64,000 nt of DNA, taken from assembly GCF_053078305.1 (NCBI RefSeq), contig NZ_CP166879.1. One strand, written 5' to 3'. Every line of letters begins with the position of its first letter. The stretch's first letter is position 1. The position numbers and the translations under genes are program-made. The notes under the pieces are model-generated. The model did no database searches and had not been told where the DNA came from. It saw nothing but the letters and a program-made list of their open reading frames with translations. This document shows, piece after piece, positions 25,713 to 30,090 of the stretch.

Positions 25713-26498
25713 TCATTCGTCTTCTGAATCAGGTGTAATGATCTTTACAGAAGCATTCCGGCAGTGCGTAACATAATCTGCCGGTAACGGACGATCGCTA
25801 ATCAGAACATCAAATGCAGAGAGCGGTGCGAGGCTGGCAGAGGCTACTTCATCGAACAAGGCGTGGCGGGCGAGCAAAATTTTCCGTAGTCCACGGGCCA
25901 TCGCTTTACGCTTAGTGGCAAGATCTTCGGGATTAAACCAGCTGACGCCAAAGTGATCATGTACACCGCTGGCGGAAATAAATATTTTTCGCGGATTGAG
26001 AGAGTCTAATGGCGAAGAGTTACTGGCATCGTAAAAAGCATCACTTCTGGCACGATACGTACCACCACAAAGTATTGCTGTCACATTAGGTTTTTCATTC
26101 AACGCAACAAAGACACGATGTGAGTAACAGATGCCAGTGAAGGTGATTGCATCCGGGATCATGCTTATAACGAGCGGTATCTCCTGGCCATTATCAAAGA
26201 AGATCAGATCATTTTCATTAACCATTCCGGCGGCCAGAATTGCAATAGGTAAGTCATCACGATGATTTCTCGGAACGTCCTGGATTACTGGCATGGATGG
26301 TGCGGGTTTATGCACCATTACAATATAGCCACCCAGTAGGGTCAGTGGCAGAGGTTCATCTTCCTGATGGAGATCGCGACGAATAGTCATTACAGAAACT
26401 TCCAGCATTCGTGCCGCGTCTTTCAAATGGATTCTGTCGGTTTTCTTAAGTATTTCAATCAAACGTCGGATACGCTCTTTTTGCTTCGTTTCCATCAA
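25713..26498 (-). CDS. deoQ: DeoR-family transcriptional regulator (DeoQ-like)
   Basis: 261 aa; N-terminal DeoR-type HTH (…ARMLEVSVMTIRRDL) plus sugar-binding-like C-terminal domain; divergent from the kinase gene. Confidence 0.75.
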   Translation of the reverse strand: MMETKQKERIRRLIEILKKTDRIHLKDAARMLEVSVMTIRRDLHQEDEPLPLTLLGGYIVMVHKPAPSMPVIQDVPRNHRDDLPIAILAAGMVNENDLIFFDNGQEIPLVISMIPDAITFTGICYSHRVFVALNEKPNVTAILCGGTYRARSDAFYDASNSSPLDSLNPRKIFISASGVHDHFGVSWFNPEDLATKRKAMARGLRKILLARHALFDEVASASLAPLSAFDVLISDRPLPADYVTHCRNASVKIITPDSEDE

Positions 26499-26800
26499 CG
26501 CTCTCTCCGTAAAAATGTTATAAAAATAACATTATGGCATTAGTAAACATTGTTTTAGTTACCATACTATACGACCGACCCTTTGAAATGAAAAGGGTAT
26601 AGACTGCTGAATTTTCGGTATTAATCCTGTTAGGTTGCTTATGATTAGATAGTGTTGGCCTGAGTGATAAGACTGGAAGTCTATTAAATAAACATCGGGT
26701 TGATGTGCTAATCGCGATCTCAGTCACAAATGATGCAAAAGTAACATGCTAATGTTATTTAAATACCATTGTTATGCGAAAGTTTATAAGAGGTAGTGAA

Positions 26801-27721
26801 ATGGACATTGCAGTTATTGGTTCCAATATGGTGGATCTCATTACTTACACTAATCAGATGCCTAAAGAAGGAGAAACTCTGGAAGCACCTGCCTTCAAAA
26901 TCGGATGTGGTGGGAAAGGTGCTAATCAAGCGGTGGCGGCGGCTAAATTGAATTCAAAAGTCCTGATGCTGACTAAAGTAGGTGATGATATTTTTGCGGA
27001 TAATACTATTCGTAATCTTGAATCTTGGGGAATTAATACCACTTATGTTGAGAAAGTCCCCTGTACCAGCAGTGGTGTTGCGCCGATCTTTGTTAATGCT
27101 AACTCGAGCAATAGTATTTTAATAATTAAGGGGGCGAATAAATTTCTTTCCCCGGAAGATATCGATCGAGCTGCAGAAGATCTGAAAAAATGCAAATTGA
27201 TCGTTTTACAACTGGAAGTTCAACTGGAAACAGTTTACCACGCGATTGAGTTTGGTAAGAAAAATGGTATTGAAGTGTTATTAAATCCGGCTCCGGCATT
27301 GCGTGAGTTAGATATGTCTTATGCCTGCAAATGTGATTTCTTTATCCCGAATGAAACAGAACTGGAAATATTAACCGGTATGTCGGTTGATACTTATGAT
27401 CATATTCGTTTGGCCGCACGTTCGTTAGTTGATAAAGGGCTGAACAATATTATTGTTACCATGAGCGAAAAAGGCGCATTATGGATGACCCGTGATCAGG
27501 AAGTCCATGTTCCTGCATTCAAAGTAAATGCTGTTGATACTAGTGGCGCTGGTGACGCATTTATTGGTTGCTTTTCCCATTATTATGTTCAAAGCGGTGA
27601 TGTTGAAGCCGCTTTGAAAAAAGCCGCTCTCTTTGCCGCTTTCAGCGTCACAGGGAAAGGTACGCAATCATCTTATCCGAGTATTGAACAATTTAATGAA
27701 TTTTTAACCTTAAACGAATAA
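26801..27721 (+). CDS. deoK: Ribokinase-family sugar kinase (deoxyribokinase DeoK-like)
   Basis: PfkB/ribokinase signatures (GGKGANQAVAAA near N-terminus; DTSGAGDAF near C-terminus); AAGAGG RBS 5 nt before ATG 26801. Confidence 0.8.
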   Translation: MDIAVIGSNMVDLITYTNQMPKEGETLEAPAFKIGCGGKGANQAVAAAKLNSKVLMLTKVGDDIFADNTIRNLESWGINTTYVEKVPCTSSGVAPIFVNANSSNSILIIKGANKFLSPEDIDRAAEDLKKCKLIVLQLEVQLETVYHAIEFGKKNGIEVLLNPAPALRELDMSYACKCDFFIPNETELEILTGMSVDTYDHIRLAARSLVDKGLNNIIVTMSEKGALWMTRDQEVHVPAFKVNAVDTSGAGDAFIGCFSHYYVQSGDVEAALKKAALFAAFSVTGKGTQSSYPSIEQFNEFLTLNE

Positions 27722-27748
27722 TCATCCTGCACAGTTAAAGGTAGCACT

Positions 27749-29065
27749 ATGAACGATAAAAACATCATTCAGATGCCTGATGGGTATCTGAATAAGACTC
27801 CCTTGTTCCAGTTTATTTTGTTATCGTGTTTATTCCCGCTATGGGGATGCGCAGCTGCATTAAATGACATATTAATCACTCAATTCAAAAGTGTATTTTC
27901 GCTAAGTAACTTTGCTTCAGCATTGGTGCAGAGCGCATTTTATGGAGGTTATTTTTTAATTGCAATACCAGCATCCCTTGTGATTAAAAAGACCAGTTAT
28001 AAGGTGGCAATTTTAATTGGCCTGACGCTGTATATTGGTGGTTGTACACTTTTTTTCCCTGCCTCGCATATGGCAACCTACACTATGTTCCTTGCGGCTA
28101 TTTTTGCGATTGCGATTGGCCTGAGCTTCCTTGAAACTGCAGCGAACACATACAGTTCGATGATTGGTCCAAAAGCCTACGCTACATTGCGGCTCAATAT
28201 CAGCCAGACCTTTTATCCGATTGGTGCTGCGTCTGGTATTTTATTGGGCAAATATCTGGTTTTCTCCGAGGGGGAAAGCCTTGAGAAGCAGATGTCCGGA
28301 ATGAACGCCGGGCAAATTCACAACTTTAAGGTGCTGATGTTAGAGAACACCCTTGAACCGTATAAGTATATGATTATGATTCTGGTTGTGGTCATGGTGT
28401 TGTTCCTTTTAACCCGCTTCCCAACCTGTAAAGTGGCACAGACAAGTCACCATAAACGCCCGTCAGCAATGGATACGCTGCGCTATCTGGCTAGAAATCC
28501 GCGCTTTCGTCGTGGTATTGTGGCTCAATTCCTTTATGTGGGTATGCAGGTCGCAGTATGGTCATTTACCATCCGTCTGGCGCTGGAGTTGGGCGATATC
28601 AACGAACGTGATGCTTCAAACTTCATGGTCTACAGCTTTGCCTGCTTCTTTATTGGCAAGTTTATAGCCAACATCCTTATGACACGTTTTAATCCGGAAA
28701 AAGTCCTGATTCTCTATTCCGTTATAGGGGCGCTGTTTCTGGCATATGTTGCACTGGCTCCAAGTTTCAGTGCGGTCTATGTCGCCGTCCTGGTAAGTGT
28801 TTTGTTTGGCCCTTGCTGGGCGACGATCTATGCAGGAACACTGGATACAGTTGATAACCAACATACAGAAATGGCAGGAGCAGTCATTGTTATGGCTATT
28901 GTTGGCGCAGCGGTGGTTCCGGCAATTCAGGGATATATTGCAGATATGTTCCACTCACTACAGCTTTCATTCCTGGTTTCTATGCTCTGTTTTGTCTATG
29001 TCGGTGTCTACTTCTGGCGTGAAAGCAAAGTACGTAATGCACTGGCTGAAGTCACAGAGTCCTGA
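27749..29065 (+). CDS. deoP: MFS sugar permease (FucP-like; DeoP-like deoxyribose permease)
   Basis: 438-aa polytopic membrane protein with ~12 hydrophobic segments, directly downstream of the kinase. Confidence 0.8.
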   Translation: MNDKNIIQMPDGYLNKTPLFQFILLSCLFPLWGCAAALNDILITQFKSVFSLSNFASALVQSAFYGGYFLIAIPASLVIKKTSYKVAILIGLTLYIGGCTLFFPASHMATYTMFLAAIFAIAIGLSFLETAANTYSSMIGPKAYATLRLNISQTFYPIGAASGILLGKYLVFSEGESLEKQMSGMNAGQIHNFKVLMLENTLEPYKYMIMILVVVMVLFLLTRFPTCKVAQTSHHKRPSAMDTLRYLARNPRFRRGIVAQFLYVGMQVAVWSFTIRLALELGDINERDASNFMVYSFACFFIGKFIANILMTRFNPEKVLILYSVIGALFLAYVALAPSFSAVYVAVLVSVLFGPCWATIYAGTLDTVDNQHTEMAGAVIVMAIVGAAVVPAIQGYIADMFHSLQLSFLVSMLCFVYVGVYFWRESKVRNALAEVTES

Positions 29066-29076
29066 GGAGAATCGTT

Positions 29077-30090
29077 ATGAGTACGCGTATTTATTTGTGG
29101 CGGGCGCTTTTTGGCGAAAAACCTCGTATCTTGCTGGAAAATAGTGATTTTACTGTCACGTCTTTTCGCTATGACAGTGGTGTCGAGGGGCTTAAAATTG
29201 CAAACAGTCGTGGACATTTAATTATTCTTCCCTGGATGGGGCAGATGATTTGGGATGCGCAATTTGATGGACACAGTCTCACCATGTGCAATATGTTTCG
29301 CCAGCCTAAACCGGCGACAGAGGTGATAGAAACCTATGGCTGTTTTGCCTTTCATTCAGGTTTGCTGGCTAATGGCTGCCCATCTGCGGAAGATACTCAT
29401 CTGCTACACGGTGAAATGGCCTGTGCCGCGATGGATGAAGCATGGATGGAATTAGAGGGAGATATGTTACGCCTTACCGGGCGTTACGAGTATGTAAAGG
29501 GATTCGGGCATCATTATCTGGCTCAGCCAGCAGTGGTCCTTCACAAATCCTCTACACTGTTCGATATTAAGATGGCCGTAACCAATCTGGCTTCTGTAGA
29601 TATGCCACTACAATATATGTGCCACATGAATTATGCATATATACCAAATGCTACGTTCAGTCAGAATATACCGGACGAAATATTAAGGTTGCGTGAATCA
29701 GTACCTTCGCATGTTAATCCCACCACTCAGTGGCTGGCGTTTAATCAACGGATTATGCAGGGAGAAGCCTCTCTGTCGACGCTGAATCAACCGGAGTTTT
29801 ATGATCCAGAAATTGTCTTCTTTGCAGACAAACTGGACGCTTACACAGATCAGCCAGAGTTTCGCATGATCGCTCCCGATGGCACTACGTTTGTTACTCG
29901 TTTCTCCAGTGCCGAACTAAATTATGTGACACGCTGGATCCTTTATAACGGCGAGCAGCAGGTAGCCGCCTTTGCATTACCTGCAACCTGTCGGCCTGAG
30001 GGATATCTTGCCGCGCAACGTAATGGCACGCTGATTCAGGTTGCACCGCAGCAAACGCGCACTTTTACAGTCACCACAGGAATTGAATAA
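29077..30090 (+). CDS. deoX: DeoX-like protein (aldose-1-epimerase-like)
   Basis: 337-aa ORF completing a kinase-permease-X operon in the arrangement reported for the deoK operon of pathogenic E. coli. Confidence 0.6.
   Translation: MSTRIYLWRALFGEKPRILLENSDFTVTSFRYDSGVEGLKIANSRGHLIILPWMGQMIWDAQFDGHSLTMCNMFRQPKPATEVIETYGCFAFHSGLLANGCPSAEDTHLLHGEMACAAMDEAWMELEGDMLRLTGRYEYVKGFGHHYLAQPAVVLHKSSTLFDIKMAVTNLASVDMPLQYMCHMNYAYIPNATFSQNIPDEILRLRESVPSHVNPTTQWLAFNQRIMQGEASLSTLNQPEFYDPEIVFFADKLDAYTDQPEFRMIAPDGTTFVTRFSSAELNYVTRWILYNGEQQVAAFALPATCRPEGYLAAQRNGTLIQVAPQQTRTFTVTTGIE

Follow-up and report, generated by a model that had tools for sequence, protein, structure and literature searches.

We describe here a four-gene locus at positions 25713-30090 of a 64,000-nt stretch of contig NZ_CP166879.1 (assembly GCF_053078305.1), which is referred to below as the window. 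According to the list of open reading frames (ORFs), this interval is filled exactly by four intact ORFs, a minus-strand DeoR-family regulator diverging from a plus-strand series of a PfkB kinase, a FucP-like major facilitator superfamily (MFS) permease and a DUF4432 gene. Pfam domains were assigned to each of them (HTH_DeoR and DeoRC for the regulator, PfkB for the kinase, MFS_1 for the permease, and DUF4432, i.e., PF14486, for the fourth gene), and catalogued Escherichia coli proteins match all four translations exactly. The genes are as follows:

25713-26495 (ORF to 26498), minus strand: deoQ, DeoR-family repressor, 260 aa from the likely ATG at 26495 (260-261 aa for the ORF)
26801-27721 (ORF from 26774), plus strand: deoK, deoxyribokinase of the PfkB family, 306 aa (306-315 aa for the ORF)
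27749-29065, plus strand: deoP, fucose/H+ symporter-family permease (MFS_1), 438 aa
29077-30090, plus strand: deoX, DUF4432 protein (PF14486) with a predicted mutarotase-like fold, 337 aa

The likely start of deoK at 26801 is preceded by a Shine-Dalgarno sequence, GAGGT, at 26790-26794. The locus is the already described deoQ-deoKPX operon for the use of deoxyribose, intact and carried as ordinary accessory cargo.

The kinase was compared with the published DeoK sequence of E. coli AL862, 55989 and CFT073, and the same residue was found at 304 of the 306 positions in the machine-read text of the figure (PMC6452873, Appendix Fig S11); that appendix gives a single DeoK sequence for these three strains and describes them as growing on deoxyribose. 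One of the two mismatches is misread in the same way in the Salmonella Typhi row of the same figure, so that both look like reading errors, and the DeoK of the three strains is effectively identical to that of the window. The S. Typhi DeoK, also taken from the machine-read figure, differs at about 13 positions (~96% identity), and a Salmonella salamae protein named 'Deoxyribokinase' is 96% identical, compared with only 37% for RbsK of E. coli K-12 in a pairwise alignment. The NCBIfam library, which holds both broad family models and E. coli equivalog models, each with its own cut-off, gives the same picture for the kinase: it scores 369 bits with the broad ribokinase model TIGR02152 (cut-off 299.65) and falls below the RbsK equivalog NF008353 (251.9 bits vs. 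a cut-off of 341). No rbs genes (rbsDACB) adjoin it on the ORF map. In the alignment with K-12 RbsK, Asp12 and the catalytic Asp252 are conserved, Tyr16 stands at the position of RbsK Asn20, and Met10, a residue whose significance was reportedly described by Tourneux in 2000, stands at the position of RbsK Asn14. Both asparagines are positions altered in K-12 derivatives selected for growth on deoxyribose, and the tyrosine position of DeoK is remarked on in PMC6452873. The first-pass annotation had pointed out that its assignment would fall if the kinase aligned best with a different sugar kinase; this comparison was run, and the kinase came out closest to the E. coli DeoK, then to the Salmonella proteins, and far from RbsK. 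At the level of sequence it is an orthologue of the experimentally characterised DeoK, not of RbsK.

The permease presents a parallel case. DeoP passes the broad fucP model TIGR00885 (321.5 bits, cut-off 280.4) and falls short of the E. coli FucP equivalog NF007524 (283.4 bits vs. 427), it is 36% identical to K-12 FucP, and Asp40 and Glu129 of DeoP correspond in the alignment to FucP Asp46 and Glu135, which the FucP structure paper is said to identify as the proton-coupling residues. No fuc genes (fucIKA) were found near deoP on the ORF map. By these comparisons DeoP is a member of the fucose/H+ transporter family and is not FucP. DeoK and DeoP thus relate to K-12 RbsK and FucP in the same manner, i.e., they belong to the same families and conserve the catalytic and proton-coupling residues, but differ in their low overall identity (36-37%) and, for the kinase, in the pocket (Met10/Tyr16 in place of Asn14/Asn20). 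Unlike the K-12 rbs and fuc operons, the operon in the window has no ABC (ATP-binding cassette) transporter, RbsD, fucose isomerase, fucose kinase or aldolase alongside.

The fourth gene, deoX, comes after deoP wherever a fetched locus contains deoP (the survey of loci is described below). Its homologues returned by our searches carry only the names 'aldose 1-epimerase family' or DUF4432, and a literature search on deoX and DUF4432 found nothing functional. Comparison of the DeoX sequence with Protein Data Bank (PDB) chains, by single-sequence and by profile searches, found no relative. An AlphaFold2 model built with 26 orthologues (predicted local distance difference test score, pLDDT, 82.8; predicted template modelling score, pTM, 0.85) was matched by Foldseek best, among solved structures, to 3TY1, a putative Klebsiella aldose 1-epimerase (template modelling score, TM, 0.75), and next to structures of the galactose mutarotase GalM (E ~1e-7). 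Since a profile comparison of DeoX with K-12 GalM gave no signal (hhalign probability 1.4%), the likeness to GalM is one of fold level only, and DeoX is predicted to have a mutarotase-like fold. Because the 5-hydroxyl of the sugar, the group that DeoK phosphorylates, is free only in the furanose and open-chain forms, and because deoX follows deoP so regularly, we consider conversion between ring forms or anomers to be its most likely role.

The regulator DeoQ is identical to UniRef entry Q707I1_ECOLX, for which one source gives the name 'DeoR family deoxyribose operon repressor'. Its best NCBIfam model is that of the DeoR repressor, with 231.9 bits just under the cut-off of 244, and there is no broad model; it is 38% identical to K-12 DeoR and shares with it the SxMTIRRDL stretch of the helix-turn-helix region, yet stays below the DeoR equivalog cut-off. 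The control region (26496-26800) between deoQ and deoK was examined in a phylogenetic footprint, for which 14 enterobacterial species were aligned and about 20 Enterobacteriaceae were checked for operator positions. The following elements are predicted there:

26516-26531, no strand assigned: operator O1, TGTTATAAAAATAACA, a perfect palindrome in the deoQ leader
26566-26594, minus strand: deoQ promoter, TTTTCA-17 nt-TATAGT, from a consensus scan
26710-26731, no strand assigned: CRP-like site, AATCGCGATCTCAGTCACAAAT (CGCGA-N6-TCACA), from the phylogenetic footprint
26731-26746, no strand assigned: operator O2, TGATGCAAAAGTAACA, together with O3 bracketing and overlapping the predicted deoK -10 element
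26753-26768, no strand assigned: operator O3, TGTTATTTAAATACCA, together with O2 bracketing and overlapping the predicted deoK -10 element

In the roughly 20 Enterobacteriaceae checked, the pattern TGTTA-N6-TAACA recurs without change of position at all three sites, one near the deoQ start and the others at O2 and O3. Neither the O1 core (ATGTT...TAACAT) nor its distance from the deoQ start varies among the 14 aligned species, and in all Enterobacteriaceae checked O2 and O3 precede the deoK start codon by 54 and 32 nt; a similar downstream operator pair, spaced by 22 nt, is present in Providencia and Proteus. Likewise invariant across the 14 species are the heptamer ACTATAC, which corresponds to the TATAGT -10 element of deoQ on the minus strand, and the blocks AATCGCGATC and TCACAAATG of the CRP-like site. 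By our own count, this site matches 14 of 22 consensus positions, and its centre lies ~40 nt before the predicted start of deoK transcription. The predicted -10 hexamer of deoK, GCTAAT (26748-26753), is located between O2 and O3. From this layout we infer that DeoQ probably binds O1-O3, whereby O2 and O3 would occlude the deoK core promoter, and that the CRP-like site adds catabolite control. The Rfam search returned no RNA family inside the region.

The same operator pattern links the locus to K-12 DeoR and its deoCABD operators, and both systems have multiple sites spaced by hundreds of bases. Upstream of K-12 deoC it occurs twice (TGTTAGAATTCTAACA and TGTTAGAATACTAACA) vs. 0.04 occurrences expected by chance, and these two sites are the DeoR operators. 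Because the predicted operators of deoQKPX share this pattern, core DeoR may cross-bind O1-O3. The -10 hexamer deserves a separate remark, since other genera read GATAAT between O2 and O3 and the E. coli form, GCTAAT, is one step further from consensus. The C at 26749 was considered as a strain-specific promoter-down mutation, and this idea was rejected: a 61-nt stretch that includes GCTAAT is identical in 1399 of the 1582 module-carrying E. coli genomes, Nissle 1917 among them, so that it is the majority allele of the species and not a defect of this strain.

The whole operon was found in 1593 of 5426 complete E. coli genomes (29%), always on the chromosome, with a best match of 99.4%. Relative to the closest complete E. 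coli genome, 42 nucleotide differences were counted in 5.8 kb; those inside the four coding regions are all synonymous (17/17), which points to intact genes under purifying selection. The deoK operons of E. coli pathogenicity islands (PAIs), i.e., those of AL862, 55989, CFT073, Nissle 1917 and the LAC PAI of LEE-negative Shiga toxin-producing E. coli (STEC), comprise the same four genes in the same order. Over 5.7 kb, the module of Nissle 1917 shows 98.2% identity, with the same ilvN stub (described below) beside it, and that of STEC S19-141 is 99.3% identical and encodes four identical proteins.

Beyond E. coli, the layout was traced by a scan of species-representative genomes, from which 80 loci were fetched. 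About 60 of the 80 have the same four-gene order, so the arrangement is not a matter of chance; the layout occurs in Citrobacter, Salmonella diarizonae, Raoultella, Klebsiella indica, Cedecea, Leclercia, Edwardsiella, Providencia, Aeromonas and many Pasteurellaceae, and Bacillus methanolicus has the genes in a different order. Across most Enterobacteriaceae DeoK is 92-97% identical, and the gene that follows deoK is 89-96% identical to DeoP in nearly all loci of this family, compared with a DNA identity of only ~73-81%. The chromosomal deoQKPX of Salmonella enterica agrees with the window in gene order and orientation, in the three operator-like sites and in the CRP-like block; its proteins are 95-96% (DeoK), 96% (DeoP), 83-84% (DeoX) and 82% (DeoQ) identical, and its DNA ~80%. 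The Proteus loci (L057-L066) have deoQ-like and deoK-like genes only. No deoP or deoX homologue is present within 6 kb of them, so that uptake in Proteus must use something else.

Taken together, these results bear out the outline given in the first-pass annotation, which had described an island-borne set of a regulator divergent from a ribokinase-family kinase, an MFS permease and a fourth gene, in the deoQ/deoKPX order, and had called it accessory metabolic cargo rather than a novel system. The composition agrees with the ORF map and Pfam, the gene order recurs in Salmonella and Citrobacter, the surroundings (CP4-57-like genes, Ag43, IS66) are those of an island, and the operon is a known one with a patchy presence in complete E. 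coli genomes.

Similarity to the chromosomal loci of other genera does not stop at the outer genes of the operon; it spans ~25474 to 30224 and takes in three further features:

25474-25711, plus strand: decayed 3' ilvN stub (acetolactate synthase small subunit), recognised by translation and annotated by RefSeq as a pseudogene in relatives
30111-30146, plus strand: intrinsic terminator after deoX, a 12-bp GC-rich stem followed by a T run
30153-30224, plus strand: decayed 5' uhpA stub with a broken reading frame, the right end of the transferred block

The ilvN stub opens with an IlvN-like start (MTHLCGLF), after which come a frameshift and an in-frame TAG, and its equivalent is marked as a pseudogene by RefSeq. 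The terminator has a folding energy of -25.4 kcal/mol (z-score -2.8), and its homologue in K-12 is the sequence that directly follows ilvN. Indeed, positions 30088-30224 align (85%) with a piece of K-12 that begins at the ilvN stop codon, crosses the intergenic region and ends 63 nt into uhpA; relative to K-12, deoQKPX is therefore a 4.4-kb segment cleanly inserted or deleted between these two genes. Citrobacter and Salmonella have an intact ilvBN, whose end lies beside the deoQ stop codon; ORFs with the sizes of uhpA, uhpB and uhpC follow deoX in Citrobacter, and a DeoX-UhpA fusion call in Salmonella confirms the adjacency of deoX and uhpA there. The Salmonella regulon thus lies between complete ilvBN and uhpABC on the core chromosome, whereas the copy in the window lies on an island with stubs of these genes. 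Because it carries both the ilvN and the uhpA stub, the module is an excerpt of an ancestral enterobacterial ilvBN-deoQKPX-uhpABC locus.

Two observations bear on the lineage from which this excerpt was taken. The ilvN stub is 90.8% identical to K-12 ilvN vs. 75-82% to ilvN of ten other genera (Salmonella, 77%), K-12 ilvN itself being 82-87% identical to ilvN of those ten genera, and the DeoX homologues fall into E. coli clusters at 97-99% and a next cluster at 85% (Salmonella, 84%), with no intermediate in the gap. On account of this stub affinity and this identity gap, the module most likely stems from an Escherichia-lineage chromosome and not from a recent transfer out of Salmonella. A recent transfer from S. 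enterica, which would concern the origin of the module and not its function, has been suggested before: the passage of PMC5382810 that cites Bernier-Febreau 2004 describes the region as thought to be derived from S. enterica, and Salmonella indeed shares the gene order and the flanking ilvN and uhpA. However, DNA identity to S. diarizonae (the Salmonella locus compared at this level, the LT2 locus of S. enterica not having been returned by the genome scan) and to every other species representative is only ~73-81%, and neither the DeoX distances nor the affinity of the ilvN stub fit such a donor. We consider a recent Salmonella source unlikely. The attribution to Escherichia is tempered by the size of the stub, which has only 239 bp and could be gene-converted by a resident ilvN, and by the uhpA side, which does not discriminate (85% to K-12 vs. 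82-86% to other genera). A compound proposition, in which DeoX is an uncharacterised enzyme converting deoxyribose from pyranose to furanose (a role like that of RbsD, on an unrelated fold) and the island copy is a surviving Escherichia-lineage excerpt of ilvBN-deoQKPX-uhpABC, cleanly deleted by K-12-like strains and not imported from Salmonella, is put forward tentatively, with somewhat less than even odds.

In the ~1.6 kb upstream of the ilvN stub (23820-25474) there is neither a convincing ORF nor a gene annotated in RefSeq relatives. From 24481 on, other E. coli islands conserve this stretch along with the deo module (99.3% identity in STEC S19-141), and from 24668 it is 98.2% identical to Nissle 1917; the Citrobacter and Salmonella loci lack an equivalent of it.

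Overall, we assign a probability of roughly 0.9 to the reading that, judged by its sequence relationships, the locus is a deoQ/deoK-deoP-deoX regulon for deoxyribose utilisation that forms part of the cargo of a large E. coli genomic island. Its proposed working is the following. DeoP would import 2-deoxy-D-ribose by proton symport, as suggested by its FucP-family fold and by Asp40 and Glu129. In the cytoplasm, DeoX would probably speed up the ring or anomer conversion to the furanose needed by the kinase. DeoK is expected to phosphorylate deoxyribose to deoxyribose-5-phosphate, an activity that the literature has shown for the identical or near-identical protein elsewhere and for Salmonella DeoK. 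The aldolase DeoC, encoded in the core genome, would then split the product into glyceraldehyde-3-phosphate and acetaldehyde, DeoK followed by DeoC being the textbook kinase/aldolase route (PMC6365646). As to control, the footprint suggests that DeoQ represses both divergent promoters through three operators (one in the deoQ leader and two at the deoK core promoter) and that the CRP-like site subjects the operon to catabolite control. Deoxyribose would relieve the repression by DeoQ; the inducer is reportedly deoxyribose itself and not deoxyribose-5-phosphate as for DeoR (Christensen et al. 2003), and a requirement for deoP and deoX is reported from the work of Tourneux (2000), Christensen (2003) and Bernier-Febreau (2004).

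Several points weigh against this reading or parts of it. The gene for DeoC, which growth on deoxyribose needs, is not in the window, although deoC is a core gene in K-12. Both the E. coli and the S. Typhi DeoK reference sequences come from a machine-read figure. The catalytic His/His/Asp/Glu set of GalM could not be mapped onto DeoX. The operator pattern is weakly enriched across the whole window (7 found vs. 1.9 expected), so the case for the operators rests on positional conservation. Finally, DeoK phosphorylates ribose too, and deoxyribose need not be its only substrate (PMC13432705).

One alternative is that the operon serves mainly ribose or another pentose and uses deoxyribose only incidentally. 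In its favour, Salmonella DeoK allows growth on ribose (PMC13432705), RefSeq applies the names rbsK and fucP, and both broad models, TIGR02152 and TIGR00885, pass their cut-offs. Nevertheless, the specific E. coli equivalog models for RbsK and FucP fail, identity to the K-12 proteins is low, neither rbsDACB nor fucIKA adjoins the operon, the kinase matches the DeoK of deoxyribose-growing strains, and Salmonella strains that lack deoK do not grow on deoxyribose; we therefore hold a primary role in ribose or other pentose metabolism to be very improbable. Equally far-fetched is the idea that the operon is silent or decaying in this strain and has no phenotype, which could draw on its degraded neighbours (the stubs of ilvN and uhpA, the truncated IS66 element and an ibrA-like gene with a frameshift) and on the distance of GCTAAT from consensus, since the four frames are intact, the protein sequences are identical to those of other strains with none but synonymous coding differences, GCTAAT is the majority E. 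coli allele, and the predicted operators, the Shine-Dalgarno sequence and the terminator are intact.

The deoK operon has been placed on pheV and pheU pathogenicity islands (PMC6455142, PMC7545054, PMC5382810). The window runs from the core genes gspL-yghD through CbtA/CbeA, antirestriction, Ag43, GTPase and YfjI genes to the deo module, with CP4-57-like genes among these island neighbours, and continues after the module with a truncated IS66, ibrA/ibrB-like genes and a type I secretion system. The island borders on gspL-yghD, which we take to be the distal side of the pheV insertion site. No tRNA gene was found in the window and no integrase was identified there; with no tRNA gene in the window, the attachment site of the island is not seen. 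One further feature adjoins the module:

30336-32376, plus strand: truncated IS66-family element with its left inverted repeat, GTAAGCGCTCCGCC, at 30336

The element retains its accessory ORFs, but its transposase ORF has only 398 aa, and no right-hand inverted repeat matching GTAAGCGCTCCGCC was found in the window. Similarity to Nissle 1917 and to the STEC strain ends at 30335, exactly at this inverted repeat. In Nissle 1917, STEC S19-141 and the published LAC PAI, the vpe operon for sugar transport, of the phosphotransferase system (PTS) type, lies directly downstream of the module; this operon is absent from the window, and the IS66 element stands in its place.

Some observations concern the island at large. 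Downstream of IS66, the ibrA-like gene, which encodes a protein resembling 3'-phosphoadenosine 5'-phosphosulfate (PAPS) reductases, is split into two ORFs (32989-34214 and 34199-34837) and lacks four bases (GTTT) near 33392 relative to the intact gene in Z1323MEC0001; the ibrB-like gene next to it is intact. The type I secretion region (38976-48832) encodes a TolC-like protein of 422 aa, an ABC permease/ATPase of 715 aa and an HlyD-like protein of 420 aa, followed by an ORF of 1614 aa. The Z1323MEC0001 counterpart of this last ORF is a gene of 7851 nt (~2616 aa) for a beta-strand-repeat protein, so that the type I secretion cargo gene here differs or is shortened. On the other side, the only Rfam match in the window, an IS102 RNA (13585-13789, minus strand; 252.9 bits), directly precedes the gene for the Ag43 autotransporter (10438-13566, minus strand) on its upstream side. 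Positions 1-15000, with gspL, yghD, CbtA/CbeA and Ag43, are at best ~95% identical to any complete E. coli genome, and over 14000-38000 the coverage by any single genome stays at two thirds or less. The island is a mosaic, and the genome collection contains no full counterpart of it.

The system is already known and its presence on E. coli islands is documented, and none of the additions made here changes that. These additions (the stubs with Escherichia affinity, the DeoR-type operator layout and the fold of DeoX) are minor, partly inferential and possibly anticipated in the literature. Among them, the flanking stubs qualify the published idea of a Salmonella origin, and the predicted operator pattern shared with DeoR and the proposed role of DeoX are modest, testable leads. 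In every genome inspected, RefSeq names deoK 'rbsK: ribokinase' and deoP 'fucP: L-fucose:H+ symporter permease'. Such names are assigned by the pipeline because the broad NCBIfam models pass; they are family-level names that misstate the substrate, and labels of a ribokinase and a fucose permease mislead metabolic models, a problem stated in PMC10926698. For the biology of the species, the passages of PMC6455142 and PMC5382810 that cite Bernier-Febreau 2004 and Martinez-Jehanne 2009 report that the operon aids both pathogenic and commensal E. coli in competition in the mouse gut via deoxyribose released from DNA.

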